Positions 29,988-62,090 of a stretch of 64,000 nucleotides of DNA are shown here, one piece after another. The position numbers and the translations under genes were made by a program. Location: positions 14,124-78,123 of the forward strand of contig JBBCJW010000025.1 of the NCBI GenBank assembly GCA_037190765.1, in the 5' to 3' direction. The stretch's first letter is position 1; each line of letters begins with the position of its first letter. The notes under the pieces were generated by a model. It saw only the letters and a program-made list of their open reading frames with translations. It was not told the origin of the DNA and did not search any database. Source of the stretch: Alphaproteobacteria bacterium. GTDB taxonomy: Bacteria; Pseudomonadota; Alphaproteobacteria; Reyranellales; JAQSWP01.

Positions 29988-30015
29988 TTGACACAGGTCT
30001 AACGTTTGTTAGTTT
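29988..30015 (+). promoter_or_regulatory. candidate promoter with shared 14-nt motif (site a)
   Basis: TTGACA (29988-29993), a 16-nt spacer, then TAGTTT (30010-30015). The motif aacgtttgttagtt is at 30001-30014, 23 nt upstream of the MaoC gene. Confidence 0.5.
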
Positions 30016-30036
30016 TTATGGATCCCGAGGCCGCTC

Positions 30037-30945
30037 GTGCTGGTGGCCGCGGAAGCGCCAATGGTCGGACAGGGGGCAGGCTTGGCGATCGACTACCAAC
30101 GTCTCAAATCGCGCCAGTTCGCGCCGATCGAGCAGCCGGTCACGGCGCGGGAGGCGATTCTCTACGCGCTGGGCGTGGGCGTCGGCAGCGATCCCGACGA
30201 TGGGCAGTCTTTGAAATTCGTCTACGAGAACGGTCTGCAGACGTTGCCGACCTATGGCACCGTGCTGGCCTATCCCGGCGTATGGATCGCCGAGAGCGAC
30301 ACCGGCATTGACTGGCGTCAGGCGCTGAATGGCGAATACAGCGTGCAGTTCCATCGCCTGCCGATGATCCGCGGCCTGGCGATCGGTCGTCTGGCGATAG
30401 AAGAGATCATCGACAAGGGGCCGGGCAGGGGAGCCCTGATCTACACCCGCCGCGAAGTCAGCGACGGCGACACCGGCGAAACCATATGCGTGGTGCGGCA
30501 GACGACATTCTGCCGCGCCGATGGCGGGTTTGGCGGACCTTCGGGGCCGATCAAGCCGGTTCGCGAGGTGCCGACGACCGCTCCCGATCTGATTGTGGCT
30601 TCGGACGTGCCGCTTCAGGCGCATCTCATCTATCGCCTTTCCGGCGATCCCAACCCGCTGCACGTCGATCCGGCGGTGGCCAGAAGCGCCGGCTTCGACA
30701 GGCCCATCCTGCATGGTGGCGCGACATACGGGTTTGTCGGCTACGCGTTGCTGAAAGCGCTCTGCAAGGGCGAACCCGCCCGGTTGCGGCAGCTCGACGT
30801 GCGTTTCTCCGCGCCTGTCTACCCGGGCGAAACCATCGAAACGTCGATCTGGCGCCTCGGCGACGGCCGCGCCGCTTTCCGATCGCAGGTGCGCCAGCGC
30901 GGCGCGATCGCGCTCGATAACGGATATGTCGAGTTTCAACCGTAG
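30037..30945 (+). CDS. MaoC-like (R)-specific enoyl-CoA hydratase, double hot-dog (MFE-2 hydratase-2-like)
   Basis: Hydratase motif YRLSGDPNPLHVDPAVA in the C-terminal half; 302 aa two-domain length. GTG start, with an alternative ATG at 30061. Confidence 0.8.
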   Translation: MLVAAEAPMVGQGAGLAIDYQRLKSRQFAPIEQPVTAREAILYALGVGVGSDPDDGQSLKFVYENGLQTLPTYGTVLAYPGVWIAESDTGIDWRQALNGEYSVQFHRLPMIRGLAIGRLAIEEIIDKGPGRGALIYTRREVSDGDTGETICVVRQTTFCRADGGFGGPSGPIKPVREVPTTAPDLIVASDVPLQAHLIYRLSGDPNPLHVDPAVARSAGFDRPILHGGATYGFVGYALLKALCKGEPARLRQLDVRFSAPVYPGETIETSIWRLGDGRAAFRSQVRQRGAIALDNGYVEFQP

Positions 30946-30980
30946 ACATCTGCACGAAGACACAAGTCCAAGGAGGGAAC

Positions 30981-31952
30981 ATGCGCAGAATTGCAGTTTG
31001 TATCGTCGGTGCCCTGTTGGGCCTGGCTGTCGCCGGGTCTGGTCACGCCCAGCAGTTTCCCAGCAAGCCCATCAACCTGGTCATTCCCTCGACGCCGGGC
31101 GGACTGACCGATGCGTTCGGCCGGATCATCGGCGATGCCATGACCAAGGCCTGGGGCCAGCCCGTCATTCTCGAGCATCGCGCCGGGGCCAATGGCATCA
31201 TCGGCACCAACTACGTCGCCAGGGCGGAGCCCGACGGACACACCCTGCTGCTGGGTTCGGCCGGTCCGCTGGCGACCAACGAGTGGCTCTATTCCTCGGT
31301 GCCCTATAGCAGCGAGCGCGATTTCGCCGGCGTCGGCATGGTGGTGACGTTTCCCAACGTTCTGGTCGTCAATCCCTCGCTGCCGGTTCATGACGTCAAG
31401 GAACTGATCGCCTACGCCAAAAACAATCCGGGCAAGCTGAACTACGGCTCGGCCGGCATCGGTGCCTCGCATCATCTGTCCGGCGAATTGTTTCGCCTGT
31501 TGACTGGGGCGGACATCGTCCACGTGCCCTACAAGGGAACCGCCCCGGCGCTGGCCGACCTGCTGGGCGGTCATGTCCAGATGATGTTCAGCAACGTGCC
31601 GGCTGCCGTCGGGCACATCCAGAGCAAGGCGCTGCGTCCGCTGGCGGTGACCAGCGCTGCCCGCAATCCGGCATTGCCCGACGTTCCCACCGTCGCCGAG
31701 GCGGGCGTGCCCGGCTACAGCATGACCTCGTGGGTGATCCTGGTGGCGCCGGCCAAGACGCCGCCGGAGATCATCGCCAAGCTCAATGCCGAAGTGGTGA
31801 AGGCAATGAACACGCCCGAAGCGCACGACCGTCTGGCGAAGGAGGGGGGTGCGACGAGCAGCGCTTCGCCGAAGGACATGGACGCGTTTCTCAAGGGCGA
31901 GAACGACAAGTTCCGCAAGATCGTCAAGGACGCCAACCTGAAGGCGGACTGA
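30981..31952 (+). CDS. Bug-family (TctC-like) tripartite tricarboxylate transporter substrate-binding protein
   Basis: Signal peptide followed by QQFPSKPINLVIPSTPGG, and later HVPYKG. Confidence 0.9.
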   Translation: MRRIAVCIVGALLGLAVAGSGHAQQFPSKPINLVIPSTPGGLTDAFGRIIGDAMTKAWGQPVILEHRAGANGIIGTNYVARAEPDGHTLLLGSAGPLATNEWLYSSVPYSSERDFAGVGMVVTFPNVLVVNPSLPVHDVKELIAYAKNNPGKLNYGSAGIGASHHLSGELFRLLTGADIVHVPYKGTAPALADLLGGHVQMMFSNVPAAVGHIQSKALRPLAVTSAARNPALPDVPTVAEAGVPGYSMTSWVILVAPAKTPPEIIAKLNAEVVKAMNTPEAHDRLAKEGGATSSASPKDMDAFLKGENDKFRKIVKDANLKAD

Positions 31953-31970
31953 GCGAGCCACCGCGACGAT

Positions 31971-31991
31971 GGGCCGCCGCTTAGGCGGCCC
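31971..31991. terminator. GC hairpin between convergent genes
   Basis: GGGCCGCC-gctta-GGCGGCCC, an 8-bp perfect stem. It overlaps the stop codon of the minus-strand hydratase gene. There is no clear T-run. Confidence 0.4.
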
Positions 31992-32790
31992 ATTCCGGCG
32001 GCCGCTTTTCGGCAAAGGCCTTCAGTCCTTCTGGCGCTTCGGGCCCGCGCAGCGTCCGCGCCAGCGTCTGGGCCGCGAAATCCAGCGCCTCCGGCAGCGG
32101 TTTGCGCGCGATCTCGTTGAACAGCGCCTTGGTCGCAACCAGCGCCATGGGACTGCCACGGTCGATCTGCTTCAGCACGTCTTCGAGTTTCGCTTCCATG
32201 TCCGCAGCATCAACGCCAAGGAAATGGCCCAGGCCCAGCCGCAACGCCTCTTCGGCGCCGAAGCGGGCCGCCGTCAGGGCGAGCCGTCGCGCCTGCGGCG
32301 CACCGATCCGCATGGCGACGAATGGCGACATCTGCGCCGGTATCAGGCCAAGCGCGACTTCGGTAATGCCGAATATGGCGTTGTCGCGCAGCACGACGAC
32401 GTCGGCGGCGCAGGCCAGGCCAAGACCGCCCGCCAGCGCGTAGCCTTCGATCGCCGCCACCACGACCGGCGGCGATGCCACGATACTCTCCAGCAGGGCG
32501 CCGAATCTGCGGTTGTCGATCGCCAGCGGGTCGGGTTCGCCAGGCTGCACCGGCTTGAGTTCGCCGATACGCTTGAGATCGGCCCCGGCGCAGAAATTGC
32601 CGCCGCTGCCGCGCATGACGACGCATTTGATGTCGGCGCGGCCATGCAACGCGGCGAAGACGCTGCCCAGTTCCTCGATCATCGACGGATTGAGGGCGTT
32701 GCGCGCCTGCGGGCGATTGAGGATCAAGTAAAGGCGGTTGCCGCGCTGCTGGAGAATGATGGTGTCATATCGTTCGGCGAAGCCGGCCAT
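31981..32790 (-). CDS. enoyl-CoA hydratase/isomerase
   Basis: ILNRPQARNA, FCAGADL, GLKAFAEKRPPEW. ATG 32790 has GGAGA 7 nt upstream; the ORF opens at TTG 32811. Confidence 0.85.
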   Translation of the reverse strand: MAGFAERYDTIILQQRGNRLYLILNRPQARNALNPSMIEELGSVFAALHGRADIKCVVMRGSGGNFCAGADLKRIGELKPVQPGEPDPLAIDNRRFGALLESIVASPPVVVAAIEGYALAGGLGLACAADVVVLRDNAIFGITEVALGLIPAQMSPFVAMRIGAPQARRLALTAARFGAEEALRLGLGHFLGVDAADMEAKLEDVLKQIDRGSPMALVATKALFNEIARKPLPEALDFAAQTLARTLRGPEAPEGLKAFAEKRPPEWAA

Positions 32791-32830
32791 GCGTCGTCTC
32801 CACGGAGGCAAACCTTGTTTCGCAAATAGT

Positions 32831-32844
32831 CTCTAACTATCATT
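32831..32844 (-). promoter_or_regulatory. shared 14-nt motif (site b) in a divergent promoter region
   Basis: The minus strand reads aatgatagttagag. The 16-mer CCAAATGATAGTTAGA (32832-32847, minus strand) is identical to 49121-49136. The plus strand offers TTGTTT-17-TATCAT. Confidence 0.5.
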
Positions 32845-32952
32845 TGGCAGACAACAGAAAAGCGATGCGGCGTCGCAGCCGGTCTGCCGGATGGACGGAA
32901 TCCGTCGTTCGCAGCCTGACGCTGGGTGAAACGTCTTGAAGTCGGAGGGGAG

Positions 32953-34149
32953 ATGGGGCCGCTTGACGGGATAAAGATGATCGAGGTGGCCGCCATCGTC
33001 ATGGCGCCGTTCGCCAGCCAGATGCTGGGCGACATGGGGGCCGAAATCATCAAGGTCGAGCCGCCGGAGGGCGACAGCATCCGCGCCGTCGGCCCCATGC
33101 ATAGCCACGGCATGGGACCGATGTATTTCAACTCCAACCGCAACAAGCGCAGCATCGTGCTCGACCTGAAGAGGCCGCAGGGCCGGGAAGCGCTACTGCG
33201 TCTGGCGCGCGATGCCGATGCGCTGCTCTACAATGTCCGCCCGCAGGCGATGGCACGGCTGGGTCTGGCCTACGAGGATCTGAAACAGGTGAATCCGGGC
33301 CTGGTCTATGTCGGCGCCTTCGGATTCGGGCAGTCGGGTCCCTATGCGGCGCGTCCGGCCTTCGACGAGCTGATTCAGGGGCTGGTGGCGATTCCCAGCC
33401 TGATGGCCCGTTCCGGCAACGGCACGCCGCGCTACGTGCCGCTGGCCTTCATCGACCGCTATGTCGGCGTCCAGGTGGCTGCCTCGCTGCTCGCCGCCCT
33501 GCTGCACCGGCAGCGTACCGGCGAGGGGCAGGCGATCGAGGTGCCGATGCTGGAGGTGGCGGCCCAGCTCGTCCTGGCCGACCATATGGGCGGCGCCACC
33601 TACGATCCGCCGCTGGGTCCGGCCGGCTATCCCCGGTCGCTGGCGTCGGAGCGGCGTCCCTTCGCGACGCAGGACGGCTACATATGCGCCATGCTCTACA
33701 CGGACCGGCACTGGCGCAGCTTTCTCGATCTGGTCGGACGGCCCGAGCTGATGCAGGATTCGAGGTTCGGCACGCTCACCTCGCGCACCGTTCATGCGGG
33801 GGAGGTGCATGGAGCGCTGGAAGACATGCTGCGCACGCGCACCACGGCGGAATGGCTCGCCGCGTTCGAGAAGATCGACATTCCCGCCTTCCGGCTCAAT
33901 ACGCTGGAATCCCTGCTTGAAGACCCGCATCTGCAGGCCGTCGACATGTTCTCCTGGCACGAGCATCCTACCGAGGGACGCGTTCGCGCCGTGCGGCCGC
34001 CCACGACCTGGTCGCGCACACCGCCGTCGATCCGGCGCCTGCCGCCGCGCATCGGCGAGCACAGCGGCGAAATTCTCGCCGAAGCCGGCTATTCGCCGGA
34101 AGAAATCGCCGCACTCGCCGCCAACGGCGCCACCAGACTGGGAGATTGA
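32953..34149 (+). CDS. family-III CoA-transferase (CaiB/BaiF/Frc-like)
   Basis: MLGDMGAEIIKVEPPEGD and GFGQSGPYAARPAFDELIQG. Start MGPLDG follows GGAGGGG. About 70% identical to 46245..47453. Confidence 0.85.
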   Translation: MGPLDGIKMIEVAAIVMAPFASQMLGDMGAEIIKVEPPEGDSIRAVGPMHSHGMGPMYFNSNRNKRSIVLDLKRPQGREALLRLARDADALLYNVRPQAMARLGLAYEDLKQVNPGLVYVGAFGFGQSGPYAARPAFDELIQGLVAIPSLMARSGNGTPRYVPLAFIDRYVGVQVAASLLAALLHRQRTGEGQAIEVPMLEVAAQLVLADHMGGATYDPPLGPAGYPRSLASERRPFATQDGYICAMLYTDRHWRSFLDLVGRPELMQDSRFGTLTSRTVHAGEVHGALEDMLRTRTTAEWLAAFEKIDIPAFRLNTLESLLEDPHLQAVDMFSWHEHPTEGRVRAVRPPTTWSRTPPSIRRLPPRIGEHSGEILAEAGYSPEEIAALAANGATRLGD

Positions 34150-34153
34150 TGTC

Positions 34154-34939
34154 ATGGACAGCAAGGATCTCGCGGGCAAGATCGCACTTGTCACCGGCGG
34201 AACGAGCGGCGTCGGCTACCGCATCGCCGAACGGCTGGCGCAGCATGGCGCCGTCGTCACCATTACCGGCCGCTCGGCGGAGCGCGGCGAAGCGGCATTG
34301 GCCGAACTGAAAAAGATCTGTCCGCAGGCCGGATTCGTCGCCGGCAACTGCCGCGAATACGATGTTTGCAAACAGGCGGTCGAAGCAGCGGCGCAGAACA
34401 GCGGCAAACTCGATCTTCTGGTCAGCGCCGGCGCCGAAGGACCGTTCGGTCCCACGCCGTTCCACGCCTTCACGCCCGAGCAGATCGTCGCCAGCTATCA
34501 GGACCGGTTCCTGCCGCGGGTCTTTCCCATTCACGCCGCGCTACCGGCGCTGAAGGCGAGCGGCGAGGCGGCGGTGCTGCTGGTAACCACCGATGCCGGC
34601 CGCCATGCCACGCCGGGAGAATCCATCATCGGCGCGGTCGGCGCCTCGATGATCATGCTGACCAAGGTGCTGGCGCGCGAGTTCGCCGAGTGGAAGATCC
34701 GCGTCAATGGCATTGCCCTGACCCTGACCTCGGACACGCCGTCCTGGGACCGGATATTCGCCAAGCAGAGTTTCGAGAACAACCTGTTCTCCAAGGCGCT
34801 GTCGCGTTTTCCCGCCGGCCGGGCGCCGACCGCGCTCGAGACCGCGCAGGTCGCGCATTTCCTGCTCTCGCCGCTCTCGTCGCAGGTGACGGGCCAGACC
34901 CTCAGCGTCAATGGCGGCCTGTCGTTTGCGGGCTGGTAG
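34154..34939 (+). CDS. SDR-fold protein lacking the canonical catalytic YxxxK
   Basis: Rossmann motif VTGGTSGVG is present. At the position of YxASK the sequence reads IIGAVGASMIMLTK. Confidence 0.75.
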   Translation: MDSKDLAGKIALVTGGTSGVGYRIAERLAQHGAVVTITGRSAERGEAALAELKKICPQAGFVAGNCREYDVCKQAVEAAAQNSGKLDLLVSAGAEGPFGPTPFHAFTPEQIVASYQDRFLPRVFPIHAALPALKASGEAAVLLVTTDAGRHATPGESIIGAVGASMIMLTKVLAREFAEWKIRVNGIALTLTSDTPSWDRIFAKQSFENNLFSKALSRFPAGRAPTALETAQVAHFLLSPLSSQVTGQTLSVNGGLSFAGW

Positions 34940-34948
34940 CCGTTCCGA

Positions 34949-34969
34949 GCGATAGCTTTTTGCTATCGC
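34949..34969 (+). terminator. hairpin downstream of the SDR gene
   Basis: GCGATAGC-ttttt-GCTATCGC, a perfect 8-bp stem 10 nt after the stop. No trailing T-run, so it may be an attenuator or RNA-stability element instead. Confidence 0.35.
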
Positions 34970-35113
34970 GCGCTTGTCCATCCGGCATTAGACGGCAATC
35001 CCGCTTTCTTCCCTAATCGGAGCAAGCGCCGGCCCAAAGTGTTTCAACGGCTTTGGTTCTCGAAGCTGCGATCTTCACCAGGGGCCGGCGAGACAATCCC
35101 TGGGAGGAAAAAC

Positions 35114-36082
35114 ATGAAGCGATTTGCCTGGATTGGGTGCCTGCTCGCAGCCCTGCTGGCGGCATCGGGTGCCGGCGCGCAAGGCTTTCCCACCGAACCG
35201 ATCCGCATCGTCGTGGCGACGACCCCGGGCGGCCTGATGGACCCGTTCGGCCGGACTGTTGGCGACTGGCTGCAGAAAAAATGGGGGCAGCCGGTTCTGC
35301 TGGAGCACAAGCCCGGTGCGGGCGGCCAACTCAGCGGCGAATACGTGGCAACCGCCAGGCCGGACGGACATACTTTGTGGCTGACCTTCAATGGTCCGCT
35401 GATTGCCTTGCCGGCCTTCGGGAAGACCAGATACGACGTCGAGCGGGATTTCGTGCCGGTGGCGCTCCTCGCCAGAACCCCGTATGTCGTTGTGGTTCCC
35501 GCTTCCTTGCCCGTCCGCTCGCTCAAGGAACTGGTCGCGCTGTCAAAGAGCACCAAGGAAGGGTTGAACTACGGCACCGCGGGCGTTGGCACCGGCGCCC
35601 ATATCGCCTCGGAAATGCTTCGTTCGCTTTCGGACGCGAACATGGTCCATGTGCCGTACAGGGGAGCGACGGCCGCCGTTACGGATCTGGTCGCCGGTCG
35701 CATCCAGATGATGATCACCAATATTCCGCCGGTTCTGCCCCACATTCAGGCAGGCACCTTGCGCGCGCTGGCCGTCACCGTCCCGCAGAGGGTCGAACTG
35801 CTGCCCGACGCGCCGACCGGGGCGGAAGCAGGCTTCCCGGACCTCCTCGCCACCGGCTTCATTGCCATCATGGCGCCCGGCGGTACGCCAAAAGAGATCG
35901 TCCAGCGTCTCAACGACGAGATCAACAGCGCGATGGAATCGGCGGAAGGCGGGAGGGCTGCCGCGGCAGCGGGCGGCCAGATTGCCCCGGGCTCGACCGA
36001 CGAGTTTTCCGCCTTCCTGCAGGCCGATACGCGGGTTTGGACCAAGCTGATCAAGGAGAACAACATCGTCGCGGGCGACTGA
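35114..36082 (+). CDS. Bug-family (TctC-like) substrate-binding protein
   Basis: MKRFAWIGCLLAALLAASGAGAQGFPTEPIRIVVATTPGG; SD GGGAGGAAAAAC. Confidence 0.9.
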   Translation: MKRFAWIGCLLAALLAASGAGAQGFPTEPIRIVVATTPGGLMDPFGRTVGDWLQKKWGQPVLLEHKPGAGGQLSGEYVATARPDGHTLWLTFNGPLIALPAFGKTRYDVERDFVPVALLARTPYVVVVPASLPVRSLKELVALSKSTKEGLNYGTAGVGTGAHIASEMLRSLSDANMVHVPYRGATAAVTDLVAGRIQMMITNIPPVLPHIQAGTLRALAVTVPQRVELLPDAPTGAEAGFPDLLATGFIAIMAPGGTPKEIVQRLNDEINSAMESAEGGRAAAAAGGQIAPGSTDEFSAFLQADTRVWTKLIKENNIVAGD

Positions 36083-36120
36083 CCGGGGACGGTGAACGAC
36101 AGCAGAAAGGGAGGGAACAC

Positions 36121-36696
36121 ATGCCCAAAGACAGCGATCTCGCGCTCGGCGCCGGCGAACGCAAGCTGTTTGAGGAAATGCTCGCCGAACGCGCCATCCG
36201 CAACACGCTGATGCGCTACTTCCGCGGCGTCGATCGCAAGGATTTCGACATGATCGCCTCCGCCTACCACCCGGACGCCTACGACGACCATGGCCGCTAC
36301 AAGGGCGACATTCCCGGTCTTATCGAGTGGATCAGGCAGCGCCACGAGATCATGGACCAGGCGATGCACTTCGCCGGCAACATGCTCATCGAGGTCGACG
36401 GCAAGACCGCCGTCGCCGAGACCTATTCGCTCTGCTTCCAGCATCTGAGAGTCGAGGGCATGGCCTGGTCCAACCGCGAGCCGGTGTATCGGAAGGTGAC
36501 GGTTTGCTTCCGCTACGTCGACCGCTTCGAAGAGCGCAATGGCGAATGGAAGATTGCCCATCGCATCTGCGTCTACGACTGGGCCAAGGAAACGCTGGAG
36601 CAGTTGCCGTCCGACGAGACGCGCGTGATGGCAAAGCGCAGCCGCGAAGATGCGGTATATCGGATCAAGAACGTCCGGGCGCCGGATATGAAGTAG
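36121..36696 (+). CDS. SnoaL-like / NTF2-family protein
   Basis: IRNTLMRYFRGVDRKDFDMIASAYHPDAYDDHG is typical of SnoaL_4-type domains; SD AGGGAGGGAA. Confidence 0.7.
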   Translation: MPKDSDLALGAGERKLFEEMLAERAIRNTLMRYFRGVDRKDFDMIASAYHPDAYDDHGRYKGDIPGLIEWIRQRHEIMDQAMHFAGNMLIEVDGKTAVAETYSLCFQHLRVEGMAWSNREPVYRKVTVCFRYVDRFEERNGEWKIAHRICVYDWAKETLEQLPSDETRVMAKRSREDAVYRIKNVRAPDMK

Positions 36697-37045: not shown

Positions 37046-37074
37046 TTGATGACAAGTCAAACATTTGTTAGATT
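37046..37074 (+). promoter_or_regulatory. candidate promoter with shared 14-nt motif (site c)
   Basis: TTGATG, a 17-nt spacer, then TAGATT. The motif aacatttgttagat is at 37060-37073, flanked by the inverted repeat GACAAG (37051-37056) / CTTGTC (37075-37080). Confidence 0.5.
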
Positions 37075-37127: not shown

Positions 37128-38102
37128 ATGAAGCTGCTTGGTTTTGGAACCGCCTTGGCGGCGCTTTCGGTTGCTCTGCTTGGACAGCCTGCGAACGCTC
37201 AGAACTATCCGAACCGACCCATCACGATCGTGGTTCCGTCCGCGCCTGGGGGATTGTCGGACGGTTTCGTGCGGCTGGTCGGTGACAGCATACAGCGCAG
37301 TTGGGGCCAGCCGGTTGTCATGGAGCACCGTCCCGGCGCCGGTGGCATCGTGGGGACCCAACACGTCGTCGGCGCTAATCCCGATGGCTATACGCTGCTG
37401 ATGGGCAATATCGGTCCACTGGCGATCAATCCAGGGCTCTACAAGGAGCTGCCCTACGACGTGAACAGGCAACTGGCGCCTGTGGCGCTGGTGTCGGTCT
37501 ATCCCAACGTGCTGGTTGTCCATCCCAGCCTTCCGATCAACAGCATCGGCGACATGATCCGCTACGCCAAGGAGAAACCCGGCACTCTGAACTATGCGTC
37601 GGCTGGCGTCGGCCAGTCCCAGCACCTGTCGGGCGAAATGTTCCGCGTCATGGCCGATGTCGATATCGTGCACGTGATGTACCGGGGCACCGGTCCGGCG
37701 CTGGCCGATCTGGTCGGCGGGCATATCGAGATGATGTTCTCGAACGTTCCTGCCGCGGTTCCGTATATCCAGTCGGGCAGGCTGCGGGCCGTCGGAGTGA
37801 CCGGGCTTTCCCGCAGCAAGGCGCTTCCCGACGTGCCGACCATCGATGAATCGGGTGTCCCGGGCTACAATGTGATTTCGTGGCTGGCGCTGGTGGCGCC
37901 GGCGGGAACGCCGCCGGAGATCGTCGAACGCCTCAATGCCGAAGTGATCAAGGCGCTTGCCTCGCCGGAAGGGCAGAAGCATCTGGAGATGGTCGGCGCC
38001 GATGCCGGGACCGGTTCGCCTGCCGAATTCGGCAAGTTCCTTCTCGACGAGCAGAAAAAGTGGAGTGATCTGATCAAGAAGGCGAACATCCAGCAGCCCT
38101 GA
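37128..38102 (+). CDS. tctC: Bug-family TctC substrate-binding protein, adjacent to tctBA
   Basis: Signal peptide followed by QNYPNRPITIVVPSAPGG. It is the first gene of the operon that contains TctB and TctA. Confidence 0.85.
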   Translation: MKLLGFGTALAALSVALLGQPANAQNYPNRPITIVVPSAPGGLSDGFVRLVGDSIQRSWGQPVVMEHRPGAGGIVGTQHVVGANPDGYTLLMGNIGPLAINPGLYKELPYDVNRQLAPVALVSVYPNVLVVHPSLPINSIGDMIRYAKEKPGTLNYASAGVGQSQHLSGEMFRVMADVDIVHVMYRGTGPALADLVGGHIEMMFSNVPAAVPYIQSGRLRAVGVTGLSRSKALPDVPTIDESGVPGYNVISWLALVAPAGTPPEIVERLNAEVIKALASPEGQKHLEMVGADAGTGSPAEFGKFLLDEQKKWSDLIKKANIQQP

Positions 38103-38129
38103 TCCGCGATATAGCGGGATCGGTGCAGC

Positions 38130-39035
38130 ATGACCAGAACCATTGGCTTCATCGGGCTTGGCAACATGGGGCATCCCATGGCCATGCGCCTGGTAGGGGC
38201 GGGCTTCCGGGTCGTCGCCTGCGACCAGTCCGAAGCCAATCTCGAGCGAGCCGTGCAGGGCGGCGCAAGCCCTGCACGCTCCATCGCCGCAGCGGCGGGG
38301 GAAGCCGACCGTATCATCTGCATGGTGGGCACGACCGCGCAGACCGAAGAGGTGCTGTTCGGCAGCGATGGCGTTGCGGCGGCGGCGCGCCGGGGCAGCG
38401 TGGTGCTGTGCATGAACACCATCGAACCCTCGGCGGCACGTCGTTTCTTCGTCAGGCTGGCTGATCGCGGCATCGCGATGCTCGATGCGCCGGTCAGCGG
38501 CGGCACACCACGGGCCGCGGCGGGTACGCTGGTCGTGATGGCCGGCGGCGATGCCGGGATTTTCGAGGGCTGCCGCGACATTTTTGCGGCGATCGGCAAC
38601 GAATGGCGTCTGGTCGGTCCGGCCGGCTCCGGCATGGCGATGAAGCTGGTCAACAACATGCTGGCGCAGATCAACATCGTTGCCGTCTGCGAGGCATTCG
38701 TTCTGGCGGAACGGGCGGGACTTGATCTCGAGCTGATGTGCGAGATCGTGCGCGCCGGTACCGGGGACAGCGCGGCGTTCCGGGGGCGCGACCGCCGGTT
38801 GCTGGCGCGCGATTTCGTGCCGGGCGGTTCGGTCGACATCTGCCTCAAGGATCAGGAGCTGCAGACGGCGTTCGCGCATGAGCTGGGCATGCCGCTGATG
38901 GTCGCCAGCCTGACCAAGCAGATCTATCAGGCGGCGCACGCCGCCGGATACGGCAGCGAGGATGCCGGGGCGGTGATCAAGGTGTTCGAAGCGATGGCGG
39001 GTAAAGGAGTGCGGGGACCCGGCGTGACCGGGTGA
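38130..39035 (+). CDS. NAD(P)-dependent oxidoreductase, 3-hydroxyisobutyrate dehydrogenase (HIBADH) family
   Basis: IGFIGLGNMGHPMA, DAPVSGG and MKLVNN. Confidence 0.85.
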   Translation: MTRTIGFIGLGNMGHPMAMRLVGAGFRVVACDQSEANLERAVQGGASPARSIAAAAGEADRIICMVGTTAQTEEVLFGSDGVAAAARRGSVVLCMNTIEPSAARRFFVRLADRGIAMLDAPVSGGTPRAAAGTLVVMAGGDAGIFEGCRDIFAAIGNEWRLVGPAGSGMAMKLVNNMLAQINIVAVCEAFVLAERAGLDLELMCEIVRAGTGDSAAFRGRDRRLLARDFVPGGSVDICLKDQELQTAFAHELGMPLMVASLTKQIYQAAHAAGYGSEDAGAVIKVFEAMAGKGVRGPGVTG

Positions 39036-39053
39036 TGGCGAGGGGAATTTGCG

Positions 39054-39575
39054 ATGAGCATGGAAGAGACGGACAAGCCCGTCGATCGGACGGCAGTGGA
39101 TGAGCGGAAACATTCGATTCTGGCGCCGCGCGACCAGCGCGGCTTCGCGACGGGCGTCCTGCTGATGGCGCTGGGTATCGCGATGCTGGTCCTGGTCTGG
39201 TCCTATCCGGTCGGCACGGCGACCCGCATGGCGGCGGGATACTGGCCGCGCATCGTGGCCTATCTGTTGATCGGCGTCGGGTTTCTCAACGTCATCGTGG
39301 CCTATTTCGCGCACCGGCGCACCGAGGTGTCGCTGCCGCCGATGCGGCAGATGCTGCTGGTGCCGATCGGGATTCTGCTGTTCGGATTTACCGTCGAACG
39401 ACTGGGATTCATCATCGCCAGCGCCCTGTTGATCGGGGTAGCGGCGCTGGCAAGTCGGGAAAGCCGGCTGGTCGAGACCATCGTGCTGGCCGTCGGCTTG
39501 ATAACGTTCTGCAGCGTGCTGTTCGTGACCCTGCTCGGGCTGTCGATCAGACTCGTGCCGCCCGGAGTTTTCTGA
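39054..39575 (+). CDS. tctB: tripartite tricarboxylate transporter small membrane subunit TctB
   Basis: Protein of about 170 aa with 4 transmembrane segments, immediately upstream of and overlapping TctA (TGATG). Confidence 0.8.
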   Translation: MSMEETDKPVDRTAVDERKHSILAPRDQRGFATGVLLMALGIAMLVLVWSYPVGTATRMAAGYWPRIVAYLLIGVGFLNVIVAYFAHRRTEVSLPPMRQMLLVPIGILLFGFTVERLGFIIASALLIGVAALASRESRLVETIVLAVGLITFCSVLFVTLLGLSIRLVPPGVF

Positions 39576-47453: not shown

Positions 47454-47495
47454 TGGCAACTCTCCATTTCCTCCCGGGGTCCGCTTTGACGCGGT

Positions 47496-49123: not shown

Positions 49124-49155
49124 AATGATAGTTAGAAACCAAACATTAGTTAGAA
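49124..49155 (+). promoter_or_regulatory. two tandem copies of the shared 14-nt motif (sites d1 and d2), 18 bp apart
   Basis: aatgatagttagaa at 49124-49137 and aacattagttagaa at 49142-49155. They lie in the divergent region between the BadH-like operon and a TetR gene. Confidence 0.55.
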
Positions 49156-51786: not shown

Positions 51787-51789
51787 TGC

Positions 51790-52650: not shown

Positions 52651-52679
52651 TTACAAAACAAGCGAACATTAGTTAGAAT
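52651..52679 (+). promoter_or_regulatory. candidate promoter with shared 14-nt motif (site e)
   Basis: TTACAA, a 17-nt spacer, then TAGAAT. The motif aacattagttagaa at 52665-52678 is identical to site d2. The inverted repeat GAACA...TGTTC flanks it. Confidence 0.55.
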
Positions 52680-52710: not shown

Positions 52711-53871
52711 ATGGAATTTCTCGATCCGTCTTTCGAGCGCCCGGTGTTTTCGGCGGCATCGAAGCAATTGCGCGCCGAGGTGAGGAAGTTCCTGCAGGAA
52801 GAACGCGAAGCGGGGAACTTCACGCCGATCTGCAATGCCTGGGTCGAGGGATTCTCCAGCGAGTTCAGCCAGAAGCTGGGCGCGCGCGGGTGGATCGGCC
52901 ATCACTGGCCGAAACGTTATGGCGGGAACGAAGGCACCGCTTACGACACCTTCATCATCAATGAGGAACTGCTGGCCGCCGGCGCGCCGGTCAACGCGCA
53001 CTGGACCGCCGCCCGCCAGTCCGGCCCGGTGATCATGCGCTATGCCAGCGAGGACATCCGGCTGAAATTCCTGCCGGAAATCGCGGCCGGCCGGCTCTAT
53101 TTCGCGATCGGGCTGAGCGAGCCCGATTCGGGTTCGGATCTGGCCTCCGTGCGCACCAGGGCCCGGCAGGACGGGAAATACTGGCGCATCACCGGACGCA
53201 AGATCTGGACGACATCGGCCCATCGTTGCCAGTGGATGATCGTGCTGTGCCGCACCTCGCCGCTGGAAGAGGGCGGCCGCCACCACGGTCTCACCCAGTT
53301 CATCGTCGATCTCAAGAGCGAGGGCGTCAGCATCCGCCCCATCCTGGCGCTGGACGGCAGCCATCATTTCAACGAGGTGCTGTTCGAGGACGTCGAGGTT
53401 CCCGAGGAGCTGATGCTGGGCAACCCGGGCGACGCCTGGCGACAGGTTTCCAGCGAACTGGCCTATGAACGCAGCGGTCCGGAACGGTTCCTGAGTTCGC
53501 TGCCGTTTCTGGACGAGTTCCTGCGCACGGTCGGCCAAAGCGGCGATCGCCACACCAACCTGAACCTGGGCCGGATGATCGCCCGGCTGGTGGTGCTGCG
53601 CGGCATGAGCCTGGGCATTGCCGGCTCGCTGAACAAGGGCAATGCGCCCGATACGGAAGCCGCGCTGGTGAAGGGGCTGGGCAGCGCCTTCGAGCGCGAG
53701 ACGATCGAGGCGGTGCGCGGCCTGGCCGGCGAGCTGATCGACCGTCCGGAGAATGCCGCCCTGCGCGCGCGCTTCCGCGAGGCGCTGTTCTCGGCGCCGA
53801 CCTACACGATCCGGGGCGGCACCAACGAGATTCTCCGCAACATCGTCGCCAAGAGGCTGAAGCTGTCATGA
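52711..53871 (+). CDS. acyl-CoA dehydrogenase, putative alpha subunit of a heteromeric pair
   Basis: Full three-domain ACAD of 386 aa. The C-terminal motif reads IRGGTNEIL, with no Glu at the YEG position. There is an IVD-type Glu candidate in ELAYERSG. Confidence 0.85.
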   Translation: MEFLDPSFERPVFSAASKQLRAEVRKFLQEEREAGNFTPICNAWVEGFSSEFSQKLGARGWIGHHWPKRYGGNEGTAYDTFIINEELLAAGAPVNAHWTAARQSGPVIMRYASEDIRLKFLPEIAAGRLYFAIGLSEPDSGSDLASVRTRARQDGKYWRITGRKIWTTSAHRCQWMIVLCRTSPLEEGGRHHGLTQFIVDLKSEGVSIRPILALDGSHHFNEVLFEDVEVPEELMLGNPGDAWRQVSSELAYERSGPERFLSSLPFLDEFLRTVGQSGDRHTNLNLGRMIARLVVLRGMSLGIAGSLNKGNAPDTEAALVKGLGSAFERETIEAVRGLAGELIDRPENAALRARFREALFSAPTYTIRGGTNEILRNIVAKRLKLS

Positions 53872-54929
53872 GTGAACTTGCGCAGATGCTGTACGACACT
53901 GCAGGCCGGCTGTTCGCCGATGCCAGTACGGCAGACCTGATCAACGCGGCGGAGAACGGGGAGTGGCCCGAAGCGCTCTGGGCCAAGCTGGAGGAGCTGG
54001 GGCTATTGGATGTCCTCGAGGAGGAAGCCGCCGATGGCGGCGGCGGATCGTGGGCGGACGTCGCCGCGCTGCTGCGACGGGTCGGCGAATACAGCGTTCC
54101 GCTGCCGGTCGCCGAGACGATCCTGGCCCGCTGGCTGGCGAAGCAGGCCGGCCTGTCGCTGCCGGCGGGGCCGGCCAGTTTGGCCCTGATCGAGCATCCG
54201 GCGGCGCTGCACGCCGAGGGCGCCGGCTGGAGGCTGGACGCCCCGCTGGCCGGGGTCGCCTGGGGGCGTATTGCCAAATCGGTGGTGGTGGCCTTCGAGA
54301 TCGATGGCGTGCTGCGCGCCGGCCTGCTGCCCGTCGCCAGCGCAAGCGAAGGCCGGTCGGTCGCCGGCGAGCCGCGCGACACGCTGGTCCCGGCCGCAAC
54401 CGCTTTCCAGGCCGGCACTCTGACCGGCATATCCCTGGACGAGGTGCGGTCGGTCGGGGCGCTGACGCGGGTGGCGATGATGACCGGCGCCCTGCAGCGC
54501 GCCATGGCGCTGTCGATCCGCTACGCCAACGAGCGTTCGCAGTTCGGCCGCTCGCTGTTCGCGTTCCAGGCGATCCAGCATCATCTGGCGCAGATCGCCG
54601 AGGAGACCTGCGCCGCGGCCGTGGCGCTCGAGCTGGCTGCGGGCAATTACAGCGACAGCCGCGCCACGATGAATATCGCGGCGGCAAAGGTCCGGGTGGG
54701 CGAGGCGGCCGGCAAGGTCGCCGCCCTGGCGCATCAGATCCATGGCGCCATGGGCGTGACCTACGAGCATACGTTGCACCACAGCACGCGGCGGCTTTGG
54801 GCCTGGCGGGACGAGTATGGCCGGGAGGACGACTGGGCGTTGCGGCTCTGGCACGCCGCCGCGCCGGAACTCGGCGCCGGCGTCTGGCCGCTTGTCGTCA
54901 GCGCCACCAGCCGCGAAGCTGCCGGCTAG
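53868..54929 (+). CDS. acyl-CoA dehydrogenase family protein, putative beta subunit
   Basis: ATGA overlap with the upstream ACAD gene. 353 aa. The C-terminal ACAD domain has GVTYEHTLHHSTRRLWAW and no YEG-type base. Confidence 0.8.
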   Translation: MSELAQMLYDTAGRLFADASTADLINAAENGEWPEALWAKLEELGLLDVLEEEAADGGGGSWADVAALLRRVGEYSVPLPVAETILARWLAKQAGLSLPAGPASLALIEHPAALHAEGAGWRLDAPLAGVAWGRIAKSVVVAFEIDGVLRAGLLPVASASEGRSVAGEPRDTLVPAATAFQAGTLTGISLDEVRSVGALTRVAMMTGALQRAMALSIRYANERSQFGRSLFAFQAIQHHLAQIAEETCAAAVALELAAGNYSDSRATMNIAAAKVRVGEAAGKVAALAHQIHGAMGVTYEHTLHHSTRRLWAWRDEYGREDDWALRLWHAAAPELGAGVWPLVVSATSREAAG

Positions 54930-54978
54930 ATCGACAACGAGGCATGCCCGGCATCGGGTTTCGGGAGAGAACGACAGC

Positions 54979-55767
54979 ATGAGCGATTACAAGACGATAC
55001 TGTTCGACGTGGCGCCGGATACCGGCGTCGCCTGCCTGACGCTGAACCGGCCGGACAGATTCAACGCCTTCAACAAGGAAATGGTCGGCGAATGGCGCGA
55101 CGTGTTGGGCCGGGTCGAGCGCGACGTTTCCATTCGCGCCCTGGTCCTCACCGGCAAGGGCAAGGCGTTCTGCGCCGGTGGCGATATCGACGAGCTGGAA
55201 TCGTTCCTGACCATGAGCGCGCTGGAGCGCAAGCAGTTCCTCTGGGACAATGTGCACCAGATTCCGCTGGCGCTCGAGCGCATCGATTGCCCGGTCATCG
55301 CCGCACTGAACGGCACGGCGCGCGGCGCGGGGCTGGACATGGCGCTGATGTGCGATCTGCGGGTGATGGACAGGTCGGTGGTGCTGGCGGAAAGCTATAT
55401 TGCGATGGGCCTGATGCCCGGCGACGGCGGCAGCTACTTCCTGCCGCGTCTGGTTGGTGTGCCGCGCGCGCTGGAACTGCTGTGGACCGGAGCAGACATC
55501 ACGGCCGAAACCGCCGAGCGCATCGGTCTGGTCAACCAGGTGACGGCGGACGGCACTTGCGTCGAGGAGGCGATCAAGCTGGCGACGCGCATCGCCCGCC
55601 AGCCGACCCATGCCATACGGTTCACCAAGCGTGCGGTCTATCAGGGACAGACCGGCGATCTGCGCGGCCATCTCGACATGGTATCCTCGCATATGTCGGT
55701 GCTGGAGGACATGCCGGACTTCCGGGCCCGCGTCGAGGCGTTCAAGAAGAGGCGACAGAAGGCTTAG
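54979..55767 (+). CDS. enoyl-CoA hydratase/isomerase
   Basis: TLNRPDRFNA, FCAGGD and RVEAFKKRR. SD GGGAGAG. Confidence 0.85.
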   Translation: MSDYKTILFDVAPDTGVACLTLNRPDRFNAFNKEMVGEWRDVLGRVERDVSIRALVLTGKGKAFCAGGDIDELESFLTMSALERKQFLWDNVHQIPLALERIDCPVIAALNGTARGAGLDMALMCDLRVMDRSVVLAESYIAMGLMPGDGGSYFLPRLVGVPRALELLWTGADITAETAERIGLVNQVTADGTCVEEAIKLATRIARQPTHAIRFTKRAVYQGQTGDLRGHLDMVSSHMSVLEDMPDFRARVEAFKKRRQKA

Positions 55768-55783
55768 ATGCTGGTGGAACGAC

Positions 55784-56560
55784 ATGCAGCTTGAGCTTGG
55801 AGGAAAGTGCGGCATCGTCACGGGAGCCAGTCGCGGCATCGGGCGCGCCATCGCGCTCGCCCTGGCACGCGAAGGCATGCGGCTGGCACTGGTGGCGCGC
55901 GCCAGCGACGTACTCGACGATGCCGTCCGGCAGACTGGTTCTGCCGACGCTTTTGCGATCGGCTGCGATCTGCGTCAGGCTGCGGCGCCTGCCGCCGCCG
56001 TAGAAGCCACGCTCGCCCGTTTCGGCGCCATCGACGTGCTGGTCAATTGCGCCGGGGCAACCAAGCGCGGCGACTTCCTAGCGCTGACCGACGAGGAGTG
56101 GAGCGACGGCTTCGCGCTCAAGTTCCATGCCGCCATGCGCATGAGCCGGGCCGCCTGGCCAGCGCTCTGCGCTAGCCGGGGAACCATCGTCAACATCATT
56201 GGCGTCGGCGGTCGCGTGGCCTCGGCCGAGTTCAGCATTGGCGGCGCCGTCAACTCGGCCCTGATCAACCTGACCAAAAGCCTGGCCGACCGCGGCGTTC
56301 GCGACGGCGTGCGGGTCAATGCGGTCAATCCGGGCGGCATTGCGACCGATCGCTGGCGCAACCGGGTCAATGTGGCTGCCGAGAGAAACCGAACCACCCC
56401 TGCCCAGGCGGAGGAACTGCTGGTGCAGGAGATGGGCGTCGCCTCGATCGGCACGCCGGAGAATATCGCCGATGTCGTGGCCTTCATGGCCAGTCCGCGC
56501 GCCGCCTACATGCAGGGCGCCGTGGTCGATGTCGATGGAGGCATGGTTCGCGCCCTTTAG
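55784..56560 (+). CDS. SDR-fold protein lacking the canonical Ser-Tyr-Lys catalytic residues
   Basis: VTGASRGIG is present, but no YxxxK occurs anywhere in the protein. The active-site region reads NIIGVGGRVASAEFSIGGAVNSALINLTK. Confidence 0.75.
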   Translation: MQLELGGKCGIVTGASRGIGRAIALALAREGMRLALVARASDVLDDAVRQTGSADAFAIGCDLRQAAAPAAAVEATLARFGAIDVLVNCAGATKRGDFLALTDEEWSDGFALKFHAAMRMSRAAWPALCASRGTIVNIIGVGGRVASAEFSIGGAVNSALINLTKSLADRGVRDGVRVNAVNPGGIATDRWRNRVNVAAERNRTTPAQAEELLVQEMGVASIGTPENIADVVAFMASPRAAYMQGAVVDVDGGMVRAL

Positions 56561-60716: not shown

Positions 60717-60755
60717 GCCGGCATCGCCTGGCGCGTCTGACGGGAGGAGTAGGGT

Positions 60756-61706
60756 ATGGATGCCGAAGCGCGTTGGGACCCGGAAATGCTGGCGGTGCAG
60801 AAAGCCTACGAACAGGAGGCCGCCAAGCATCCGCCGGTGACGTTGACGCCACCGCTCGACTCGCACCGCAAGGTGCATCAGACGCTCAACAACACGCTCG
60901 GCGTCGGCGAGCCGAAAATGGCCGACAGCGCCGAGCGGTGGATCTGGACGCGCGGTCGGCGCGTGTTCTGTCGCGTGCATCGGCCGCGCACCGATCGGCC
61001 GCTGCCGGCCGTCGTCTACATGCATGGCGGCGGCTGGGTATGGGCCTCGGTCGACACCCATGACCGCTTGACGCGCGAATATGCGGCCGGCGGCGAGGTG
61101 GCCATGGTGGTGATCGACTATGCGCTGGCGCCGGAGACGAAATTTCCGGGCGCGATCGAGGAGTGCGTGGCGATGGTGCGCCATATCGCCGAGCATGGCA
61201 GCGACTGGGGCCTCGACCCGCATCGCATCGGCGTCGCCGGCGATTCCTCGGGCGGCAATCTAGCACTAGCCACCGCCCTCTATCTGCGCGACCACGGCGG
61301 GCCGGCGCTCAAGGGACTGATGACCGCCTACCCGGTGTGTGACAACGACTTCACCCGGTCCAGCTACAGGGATTACGGCAACGGCTTCAAGCTGACCGTC
61401 GAGGGCATGAAGGCGTACTGGAACGCCTACCTGCCGCACGACGCGGATCGCACCCATCCGCTGGCCGCACCGCTGCGCGCCAACCTCGCCGGATTGCCGC
61501 CGACTCTGATCCAGCTTGCCGAACTCGATCCGCTGCGCTCGGAAGGCGAGGAACTGGCGCGCCGGCTGACCGGCGCCGGCGTGGCCTGCGACCTGCAGGT
61601 CTATCCCGGCATGATCCATGGTTTCGTGCGCGCTACGAATGGCGTCGCCCGCGCCCGCGAAGCCATGCAGCATGCCGGCGCCTGGCTGCGTCGAACCATG
61701 GCCTGA
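60756..61706 (+). CDS. alpha/beta-hydrolase-fold-3 esterase/lipase (HSL family)
   Basis: Oxyanion motif HGGGW, nucleophile GDSSGG, then DPLRSEG and HGF. Confidence 0.85.
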   Translation: MDAEARWDPEMLAVQKAYEQEAAKHPPVTLTPPLDSHRKVHQTLNNTLGVGEPKMADSAERWIWTRGRRVFCRVHRPRTDRPLPAVVYMHGGGWVWASVDTHDRLTREYAAGGEVAMVVIDYALAPETKFPGAIEECVAMVRHIAEHGSDWGLDPHRIGVAGDSSGGNLALATALYLRDHGGPALKGLMTAYPVCDNDFTRSSYRDYGNGFKLTVEGMKAYWNAYLPHDADRTHPLAAPLRANLAGLPPTLIQLAELDPLRSEGEELARRLTGAGVACDLQVYPGMIHGFVRATNGVARAREAMQHAGAWLRRTMA

Positions 61707-61716
61707 CGGAGTGGGT

Positions 61717-62043
61717 TCAGCGCAGTTTGGAGTAGCGGGTGGGTTTCCAGATGTAGTTTTCGAAACTGGCCACCAGATTGCCCTCGCGCTGCGCCTCGGC
61801 GAGGCTGGAAATCCATTCGGGATCTTCCTGAAAGGCGGTGAAGCGGGTCTCGCGTTCGGCCAGCGACTCCCATTCGAGCAGATAGGTCAGGTCCTGGTTG
61901 CTGGGGCCGATCAAGGTGGTCCAGAAGCCGACCTGCCGGATGCCGTGCTTGTCCCACAGGCGCAGGGTGACGGTCTCGAACAGCCGGCTCAGCGCCGGCA
62001 GGCGGCCGGGTATGCAGTGATAGATCCTGATTTCATGCAGCAT
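61717..62043 (-). CDS. NIPSNAP-family protein
   Basis: MLHEIRIYHCIPGRLPAL...FWTTLIGPSNQDLTYLLEWESLAERE; 108 aa. SD GGGAGGG. Confidence 0.75.
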   Translation of the reverse strand: MLHEIRIYHCIPGRLPALSRLFETVTLRLWDKHGIRQVGFWTTLIGPSNQDLTYLLEWESLAERETRFTAFQEDPEWISSLAEAQREGNLVASFENYIWKPTRYSKLR

Positions 62044-62058
62044 TAGCGCCCTCCCGGC

Positions 62059-62090
62059 TTGAATAGAATTCTACCGAATGTTAGTTTGAA
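62059..62090 (+). promoter_or_regulatory. candidate promoter with shared 14-nt motif (site f)
   Basis: TTGAAT, a 17-nt spacer, then TAGTTT. The motif aatgttagtttgaa is at 62077-62090. Confidence 0.45.

Follow-up and report, generated by a model that had tools for sequence, protein, structure and literature searches.

Does a single regulator hold together the many catabolic operons in the right-hand half of a 64-kb stretch of alphaproteobacterial DNA (contig JBBCJW010000025.1 of assembly GCA_037190765.1; hereafter the window)? The island in question contains four crotonases (enoyl-CoA hydratases, ECH), three CoA-transferases, at least five short-chain dehydrogenases/reductases (SDRs) and five genes for Bug-type binding proteins. 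The original prediction was that an AT-rich 14-nt motif, present at seven sites (a, b, c, d1, d2, e and f) in six intergenic regions, ties these paralogues into the regulon of one TetR-family gene (tetR, 49188..49829, + strand), in front of which the motif stands twice. Several lines of evidence support this central claim of one operator for one autoregulated TetR: a dyad of the same type precedes most genes encoding homologues of the protein, a weight matrix trained on those foreign sites alone retrieves the seven sites and has no strong match in unrelated control loci, close orthologues keep a site at the start of tetR, and the recognition helix of the protein family hardly varies. The seven sites are thus very probably operators at which the TetR protein would act as a repressor.

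A pattern search of the window placed all seven sites where they had been described. The consensus given for them, AAYRWTWGTTWGAW, has five exact matches (at 37060, 49124, 49142, 52665 and 62077), against 0.00 expected from 100 dinucleotide-preserving shuffles of the window; sites a and b are each one base off this consensus, though their letters had been reported correctly. Allowing up to two mismatches gives nine matches against 1.72 expected, namely the seven sites plus reverse-strand or offset registers of c and f, and none within positions 1-29988. Likewise, d2 and e are indeed identical 14-mers, and the 16-mer CCAAATGATAGTTAGA occurs both at 49121-49136 and, on the minus strand, at 32832-32847. 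Recurrence of the motif was therefore correctly recognized, but the one-sided 14-mer is not the real unit. That is, the sites are near-palindromes of the form (T)C[T/A/G]AA[C/T]-N4-GTT[A/T]G(A), 14-16 bp long and beginning 2 nt to the left of the 14-mer (in short form, C-W-A-A-Y N4 G-T-T-W-G). According to a curated gene map, the window has 31 intergenic gaps longer than 40 bp, which make up ~4.4 kb in total or ~7% of its length, and 27 of them are promoter-capable; the seven sites are all intergenic and occupy six of the 27. An RNA element was rejected as an explanation, as the window has no Rfam matches.

The dyad accompanies the TetR family well beyond this genome. Homologues of the window TetR are numerous (947 at E<=1e-10) and come from Alpha- and Betaproteobacteria, the window protein itself belonging to a small clade of its own (62-93% identity). 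We collected 80 loci encoding homologues, mostly 44-54% identical and from the same two classes, of which 79 were scored for half-sites of the type C-W-A-A-C / G-T-T-W-G (maximum score 10, counted at >=9 within 300 bp upstream). A dyad scoring 9-10 was present within 300 bp upstream of the TetR homologue in 54 of the 79 loci, compared with 72 of 1580 random 300-bp segments taken from the same loci, the median distance between the site and the inferred start codon of the homologue being ~80 bp. Looking de novo for perfect 4+4 palindromes in front of the homologues failed to bring out the motif, since the left half-site is mostly GAAC or AAAC; 3+3 dyad enrichment returned words of the GTTAGTTAG type. 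A symmetrised weight matrix was then trained solely on the sites upstream of the homologues and run over the window, where its top non-overlapping matches were a, c, d2, f, e, d1 and b, in that order, their scores falling from 24.7 to 13.6. The next match (12.3) lies inside a gene, and in 30 random windows generated with a first-order Markov model the mean maximum score was 11.9 and the largest 17.5. The five strongest sites are thus clearly beyond chance, while b and d1 rest on their position and mutual identity.

Taken in order of their scores, the sites are as follows. Site a (29998..30013, TCTAACGTTTGTTAGT), upstream of a MaoC gene and a Bug gene, is a perfect 5+5 dyad, CTAAC-GTTT-GTTAG, and scores best in the window (24.7). 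Site c (37057..37072, TCAAACATTTGTTAGA; CAAAC-ATTT-GTTAG), upstream of tctC, scores 24.2, and d2 (49139..49154, CCAAACATTAGTTAGA; CAAAC-ATTA-GTTAG), which ends 34 nt 5′ of the tetR ATG at 49188, scores 21.3. Site f (62070..62089), in the divergent region between a NIPSNAP gene and an SDR gene, was correctly positioned in the original prediction but in the poorer of two overlapping registers: the better one, 4 nt to the left of it, is TCTACCGAATGTTAGT (62070-62085, CTACC-GAAT-GTTAG), the other being CCGAATGTTAGTTTGA (62074-62089, CGAAT-GTTA-GTTTG), and the two score 18.4 and 12.4. Site e (52662..52677, GCGAACATTAGTTAGA; CGAAC-ATTA-GTTAG; score 17.3) lies in the divergent region between a crotonase gene and the gene for the alpha subunit of an acyl-CoA dehydrogenase (ACAD). 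The two weakest sites, d1 (49121..49136, CCAAATGATAGTTAGA) and b (32832..32847, TCTAACTATCATTTGG on the plus and CCAAATGATAGTTAGA on the minus strand), share the dyad CAAAT-GATA-GTTAG and the score of 13.6, the latter site being located in the ECH/CoA-transferase divergent region. Sites d1 and d2 are the first and second copies of a tandem repeat (49120-49156), to which Tandem Repeats Finder assigns 2.1 copies of an 18-bp unit with 84% match. A weak dyad-like sequence, CCAAT-ACCG-GTTAG on the minus strand at 57578-57597, between a LysR gene and an alpha/beta-hydrolase gene, was considered as an eighth site; it is kept in the closest related metagenome-assembled genome but scores low with the foreign-trained matrix and is too weak to count.

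Phylogenetic footprinting at orthologous loci, which covered c, d1/d2 and e, had been suggested as a check, and it revealed conserved cores at c, e and d2 as well as at the starts of orthologous tetR genes. The closest genome record is a Reyranellaceae metagenome-assembled genome (MAG L004; Alphaproteobacteria, Hyphomicrobiales), whose TetR is 95% identical and whose DNA is 87-92% identical to the window over most of 37-60 kb, with a rearranged block at 41-46 kb. Upstream of site c the DNA of the two genomes is nearly unalignable, and identity resumes at the -35-like TTGxTG and continues through the dyad to TAGATTTC; at site e an island comprising the promoter and operator is likewise kept amid diverged neighbouring DNA. 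In two relatives with a 93% identical TetR (L002 and L003), d2 is intact together with eight flanking bases, and d1 is degenerate with an indel. Orthologues at 76, 75 and 62% identity have a single site, YCTAATGNTAGTTAGAAAA, [TC]CTAATG[GCA]TAGTTAGAAAA, at the tetR start, so that a site at this position is kept in every close orthologue (62-93% identity). The d1/d2 pair is therefore a lineage-specific duplication, since tandem 18-bp units are present here versus a single site in the 62-76% orthologues.

Beyond the close relatives, the sites adjoin similar kinds of operons. In Hydrogenophaga, a site stands at the head of an SDR-ECH-TetR-MaoC-ETF-QO operon (ETF-QO, electron transfer flavoprotein-ubiquinone oxidoreductase) and a second before an operon for an ABC transporter and an acyl-CoA ligase. 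In Rhizobacter fulvus, a TetR-MaoC-ETF-QO-SDR-SDR-CoA-transferase operon is divergent from a liu-like ACAD-ECH-carboxylase-HMG-lyase cluster, with a site in the region common to both. Plasmid 2 of Polaromonas sp. JS666 (L086, NC_007950.1 35150-59764) has sites at an SDR-TetR-MaoC-ETF-QO operon, at an ABC/AMP-ligase operon and at an aldehyde dehydrogenase gene, and a Roseibium plasmid has them at a TetR-carboxylase operon, a lipid-transfer/SDR pair, a CoA-transferase/ACAD pair and an SDR gene. In four annotated loci (Rhizobacter, Polaromonas, Roseibium and an alphaproteobacterial MAG), 13 of the 14 sites scoring >=14 are intergenic, and they adjoin acyl-CoA, ETF-QO, transporter and other catabolic operons. 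On the Polaromonas plasmid the sites also adjoin a P450/ferredoxin/PQQ-dehydrogenase cluster (PQQ, pyrroloquinoline quinone), and this locus suggests a plasmid-borne FadP-like regulon tied to alkane or alcohol oxidation.

The protein encoded at 49188-49829 has a TetR fold of the acyl-CoA-sensor type. It matches TetR_N (PF00440, E=1.8e-17, 63 bits against a cut-off of 24) and TetR_C_24 (64.5 bits against 26.4), and its AlphaFold model (pLDDT, the predicted local distance difference test, 87.9) is all-helical with ten helices. The top Foldseek matches of this model are all TetR regulators, at probability 1.00, the closest folds being PfmR, AibR with isovaleryl-CoA and operator DNA, PfiT, DarR, KstR2 and Bacillus FadR with stearoyl-CoA; the same relatives came up when the PDB was searched by profile and by sequence. 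Since these fold and sequence relatives sense acyl-CoAs or fatty acids, an acyl-CoA is the most likely effector to be predicted from the model. The region of the recognition helix, GIKAGSIYYHFRSKEEIL, is nearly invariant across the homologues, which have KAGSIYYHFxSKE in common, and this fits a half-site that is itself common to the homologues. A near-identical 12.8-kb Logan contig carries a TetR gene call of 193 amino acids, the open reading frame (ORF) at 49188-49829 encoding 213, for which an exact look-up gave no match. Two other TetR_C_24 proteins are encoded in the window; they are 21-24% identical to the TetR at 49188-49829 and differ from it in the recognition helix. One of them (ORF 818-1549, 24% identical), which adjoins an ACAD gene and an ABC transporter cluster, has an inverted repeat, GTAAGTA-N7-TACTTAC, upstream at 789-809. 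The other (ORF 17631-18464, 21% identical) has a perfect palindrome, TAAGCATATGCTTA, at 17617-17630 in a divergent promoter region, and a copy of this palindrome with two mismatches, TAAGCGTTTGCTTA, at 18674-18687, just 3′ of the gene.

How would binding to the dyads act on transcription? In a relaxed scan (at least 3/6 matches per hexamer, A2 and T6 in the -10, spacer of 16-18 nt), the best promoter candidate of the a, c, e and f regions falls on the dyad. At a this is TTGACA-16-TAGTTT, the site being located between the -35 (29988-29993) and the -10 (30010-30015); the others are TTGATG-17-TAGATT at c, TTTACA-18-TAGAAT at e, and TTGAAT-17-TAGTTT at f. The -35/-10 pairs originally read by eye at these four sites are thus present, that of e also as TTACAA-17-TAGAAT, and they overlap the dyads as the proposed promoter occlusion would have it, although under a strict sigma-70 consensus the overlap holds less widely, as discussed below. 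Sites b and d1 had also been credited with -10-like hexamers, but a better one lies on the opposite strand, where the ATGATA of these sites reads TATCAT (5/6 of the -10 consensus). At b this hexamer (32838-32843) is oriented to the CoA-transferase operon, with TTGTTT 17 nt upstream of it, and at d1 it is on the minus strand and faces badH. Occlusion of RNA polymerase is the likely mechanism, judging from this arrangement.

Site d1 has a further peculiarity, an ATG at 49125 that shares its reading frame with the annotated start of tetR at 49188 and would be an alternative start codon within the operator. The MAG, the 93% relatives and three more distant orthologues also have this ATG in frame; it is preserved in four independent orthologue lineages (e.g. 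L088 633, L089 2566 and L090 432), and gene callers picked it as the start in three contigs. The orthologous proteins can all begin with M-x-V-R-K, followed by an open, basic linker of variable length and then by a conserved KAE-x-SR-x-QVLL, and two orthologues have a TATTCT hexamer that ends 5 nt before the in-operator ATG. Rare codons in the stretch 49125-49187 weigh against its translation, whereas the preserved frame weighs for it. It is possible, then, that tetR has a leaderless mRNA that would start within its own operator.

Could the motif be no more than a generic promoter consensus of the organism, of an extended -10 or AT-rich kind? Its 3′ part (TAGAAT, TAGATT or TAGTTT) is indeed -10-like, and at a, c, e and f it has a -35-like hexamer at a distance of 16-18 nt. 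However, 21 of the 27 promoter-capable gaps are without the motif, including that of a paralogous ECH|CoA-transferase divergent pair at 9.6 kb, and a -10 element has no need of dyad symmetry. Moreover, matrix matches of >=17 number 160 in 1.36 Mb around the homologues (11.8 per 100 kb) and 5 in the window (7.8 per 100 kb), and there is none in 446 kb of unrelated, promoter-rich proteobacterial loci, which came from a metagenome scan with the window Bug protein and carry Bug paralogues 38-48% identical to it. The dyad goes with the TetR family in genomes of two classes and is not a general promoter feature, which makes the generic explanation highly improbable. An origin as relics of duplicated intergenic segments, or of a small repeat element, devoid of any regulatory role would suit an island so rich in paralogues, the more so because d1/d2 is a true 18-bp tandem duplication and b and d1 have a 16-mer in common. 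Yet the flanks of the seven sites are unrelated to each other beyond the core of 16-20 bp, the same core precedes non-homologous operons in distant genomes, and the footprints amount to selective conservation of the core, leaving this origin a negligible probability.

Two further alternatives accept the sites as operators and differ as to the protein or its effect. The main binder might be another one, be it the IclR or LysR protein of the island or a FadP-like paralogue encoded outside the window, the local TetR being merely one of the targets. The size of the family and its almost invariant recognition helix, by which paralogues in one genome could cross-bind, would allow for this, as does a view of the genome limited to 64 kb; but the site is kept at TetR orthologue starts on contigs that lack IclR and LysR genes, a different inverted repeat occupies the IclR divergent region, and the different recognition helices of the two other window TetRs speak against those as well, so that a foreign main binder is distinctly unlikely. 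The TetR could instead bind as an activator or dual regulator, and a few activators are known in the TetR family. No overlapping promoter with both a good -35 and a good -10 is seen at b (for the CoA-transferase operon) or at d1/d2 (for tetR), and an NCBIfam model named for the 'activator' FasR matches the TetR weakly. Activation is nevertheless very unlikely: at a, c, e and f the dyad overlaps the best promoter candidate in its spacer and -10, and the relatives FadP, KstR, KstR2, AibR, PfmR and FadR are repressors. 

Several observations weigh against reading the island as the regulon of a repressor that serves one pathway. Sites b and d1 score just 13.6, a level sometimes reached in random sequence; a strict sigma-70 scan of the site regions finds a promoter only at e; and a scan of the tetR region found no convincing promoter for the gene. 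Only the 64 kb of the window were scanned in the source genome, and further sites or a cross-binding FadP-like paralogue could lie elsewhere in it. As to the pathway, the BadH-like protein scores 332.3 bits with TIGR03206, below the cut-off of 431.2, and in the window no thiolase gene stands behind any site. Because BadH is under its cut-off and the regulon has no thiolase, the gene content makes for a weak pathway assignment.

The preferred reading, repression by the TetR, would concern up to nine transcription units plus tetR. Gene identities were taken from Pfam and NCBIfam profiles, which confirmed the original gene calls, including those of SnoaL_4 and BadI, except that the final 'hydratase' (62959-63786) has merely a weak MhpD-like match. 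Unit 1 (30037..31952, + strand), with site a ~50 nt upstream, encodes a MaoC-type (R)-hydratase (30037-30945, probable ATG at 30061) and a Bug/TctC binding protein (30981-31952). Site b is flanked by unit 2 (31981..32811, - strand), a crotonase with a probable ATG at 32790, ~49 nt from the centre of the site, and by unit 3 (32926..36696, + strand), which encodes a family III CoA-transferase, an SDR, a Bug protein and a SnoaL_4 protein and has the site, overlapping the -10-like TATCAT, ~110 nt upstream. Unit 4 (37128..41077, + strand; site c 56-71 nt upstream) consists of tctC, a gene for a HIBADH-like dehydrogenase, tctB and tctA, i.e. it encodes a transporter of the tripartite tricarboxylate type (TTT). 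Sites d1 and d2 lie, 34-67 nt upstream of tetR, in the divergent region of tetR and unit 5 (46245..49050, - strand), which encodes a BadH-like SDR, BadI and a family III CoA-transferase. Site e is shared by unit 6 (49838..52617, - strand), comprising a crotonase whose start is ~45-60 nt from the site, a racemase-like family III CoA-transferase and an SDR, and unit 7 (52711..56560, + strand), comprising a PimC-like ACAD alpha subunit, a PimD/IpdE2-like ACAD beta subunit, a crotonase and an SDR. Site f, finally, is 27-46 nt upstream of unit 8 (61717..62043, - strand; a NIPSNAP-domain protein) and 11-30 nt upstream of unit 9 (62100..63786, + strand; an SDR and the weakly MhpD-like protein).

The remainder of the window is free of sites. 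A block at 41.3-46.1 kb encodes a HIBADH-like protein, a Bug protein, a bicupin, TauD and IclR, and another at 56.6-61.7 kb encodes LysR, a hydrolase, a luciferase-like monooxygenase, a Bug protein and an esterase; the left 30 kb contain further acyl-CoA genes, two ABC transporters and the two additional TetR_C_24 regulators. In the AT-rich TauD/IclR divergent region, a 16-nt inverted repeat (TTTCATCTAGCGCACA / TGTGCGAAGAATGAAA, 45283-45316) might be the operator by which IclR controls the bicupin/TauD/Bug module, a module with no TetR site. Compared with positions 4164-6929 of MAG L004, the stretch 41100-46200 is rearranged, with the Bug gene inverted and the TauD-IclR segment unalignable, as would be expected of a separate module that had come to lie amid the units of the regulon by insertion. 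The five Bug/TctC genes of the island lie within 30 kb (30981, 35039, 37128, 42348 on the minus strand, and 59586) and compare with one tctBA membrane pair. Such an 'orphan Bug' pattern is better known from Bordetella and Cupriavidus and is here seen in an alphaproteobacterium.

From these elements the following mechanism can be proposed. A dimer of the TetR, translated from 49188 or from 49125, would bind each of the 14-16 bp dyads, which lie 20-115 nt upstream of start codons and in or beside the best -35/-10 candidates of the six intergenic regions, and would thereby repress the nine or fewer units and its own gene. An acyl-CoA intermediate of the pathway would probably bind the C-terminal TetR_C_24 domain and free the DNA. 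The derepressed units would then provide for uptake by the TTT transporter and the Bug proteins, activation by the family III CoA-transferases, and processing by the BadH-like/BadI ring-cleavage pair, a PimCD-like heteromeric ACAD, crotonases, SDRs and the MaoC hydratase.

What such a pathway would degrade can be stated more tentatively. BadI is assigned by an equivalog model (TIGR03210, 2-ketocyclohexanecarboxyl-CoA hydrolase), at 470.6 bits just above the cut-off of 467.6, and the large subunit of the two-subunit acyl-CoA dehydrogenase is most similar to PimC; no AliA/AliB equivalog was identified in the window with NCBIfam. Together with the BadH-like SDR, the four crotonases, the other SDRs, MaoC, the three CoA-transferases and the TTT components, this gene content may stand for uptake, CoA activation, opening of an alicyclic acyl-CoA ring to a pimeloyl-type dicarboxyl-CoA, and partial beta-oxidation, an assignment that we hold with somewhat less than even confidence. 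The substrate is possibly an alicyclic acid of the cyclohexanecarboxylate type or a dicarboxylic acid, and the units may, as originally proposed, belong to one pathway. A bolder version would combine two features: the operator would be the first five codons of a leaderless tetR (AUG-NUA-GUU-AGA-AAA), and the regulon would serve an undescribed alphaproteobacterial route for acids of the alicyclic/naphthenic type, proceeding by TTT uptake, CoA-transferase activation, BadH/BadI ring opening and PimCD-like dehydrogenation. This combination appears unlikely.

How does the system compare with known ones? FadP is reportedly a TetR-family regulator of fatty-acid degradation in Burkholderiales, predicted by Kazakov and colleagues in 2009. 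In the genomes studied by Leyn et al. 2016 (PMC5343134), FadP occurs according to those authors in Betaproteobacteria only; their list of its regulon contains fadP, etfD, echI/maoC, echH and fadD, and it extends to all 11 Comamonadaceae genomes studied, that of LiuQ to two. Deletion of fadP in Ralstonia sp. CL21 led to better growth on adipate, as for a repressor (PMC12543098). Like FadP, the window TetR belongs to the TetR family and would control itself and a multi-operon regulon of acyl-CoA catabolism. It is 48-50% identical to the TetRs of Comamonadaceae and Rhizobacter in TetR-MaoC-ETF-QO operons, an arrangement that fits fadP-echI/maoC-etfD, and these putative betaproteobacterial fadP operons are preceded by the same TAAC-N4-GTTA dyad. 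In contrast to FadP, the host is an alphaproteobacterium (Reyranellaceae), outside the published betaproteobacterial range, and the core regulon (etfAB, etfD, fadAB, acdAB and acyl-CoA dehydrogenases) is not found: none of etfAB, etfD, fadAB or a thiolase gene stands behind a site in the window, whose targets form a specialised island of BadH/BadI, PimCD-like, CoA-transferase and TTT-transporter genes. From synteny and regulon content we infer that the betaproteobacterial homologues are FadP and that the window TetR is a FadP-like relative.

Other TetR regulators of lipid or acyl-CoA catabolism offer further parallels. KstR and KstR2, which control cholesterol catabolism in Actinobacteria, are likewise autoregulated repressors with a short palindrome over the -10 of many catabolic operons (PMC1995591). 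KstR2 is a relative of the window TetR over its full length and in fold, and the half-site core AAC/GTT is common to KstR and the window dyad. However, the KstR core, TnnAACnnGTTnnA, has AAC and GTT 2 nt apart instead of 4, KstR and KstR2 are only ~21-22% identical to the window TetR, and the island lacks steroid-ring genes (IpdAB, thiolase FadA6). An identity with KstR was accordingly rejected, with 24.9 bits against a cut-off of 280 for NCBIfam NF033703 and with an operator spacing of N4 versus N2. PsrA, which regulates fatty-acid degradation in Gammaproteobacteria, is also a TetR repressor responsive to long-chain acyl-CoA or fatty acids, and its operator, reported as G/CAAAC-N2-4-GTTTG/C, resembles sites c, d2 and f (CAAAC-N4-GTTAG / GTTTG); the window TetR is nevertheless not PsrA, as NF053516 gives 35.1 bits against a cut-off of 300 and matches the helix-turn-helix only. 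AibR (Myxococcus), PfmR (Thermus) and FadR (Bacillus) are the best folds (TM scores of 0.73-0.76 normalised to the query), but they are 18-29% identical and have different operators and unrelated hosts. BkaR (Rv2506) and AtuR resemble the window TetR as local autoregulated TetRs beside acyl-CoA carboxylase/dehydrogenase clusters, for branched-chain and acyclic terpene catabolism, respectively; BkaR also has two operator copies in a divergent promoter, as in d1/d2, and in Roseibium an atu/liu-like carboxylase operon begins with the gene for a homologue of the window TetR. Their operator types were both rejected for the present sites, that of BkaR, GTTA-N-T-N4-A-N-TAAC, having its half-sites in the opposite orientation and that of AtuR, TACAAACCAAGCGCTTGCTTGGTA, a different sequence.

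The system is, then, a standard local TetR regulon of the FadP, KstR or PsrA type, and is best read as that of a FadP-like, autoregulated repressor, probably released by an acyl-CoA, in an uncultured alphaproteobacterium of the Reyranellaceae. It leaves general concepts of gene regulation unchanged. The operator model TCTAAC-N4-GTTAGA is usable for the large TetR_C_24 family to which the 947 homologues belong, and it lets scattered crotonase, SDR, CoA-transferase, ACAD and Bug paralogues be grouped into co-regulated catabolic modules, a grouping that is otherwise very hard in paralogue-rich genomes. The repressor-operator pair might moreover serve as a biosensor part for acyl-CoA intermediates of the alicyclic or dicarboxylic type. 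For the family itself, regulation of the FadP type appears to reach beyond the Betaproteobacteria and to have been reused for specialised pathways.

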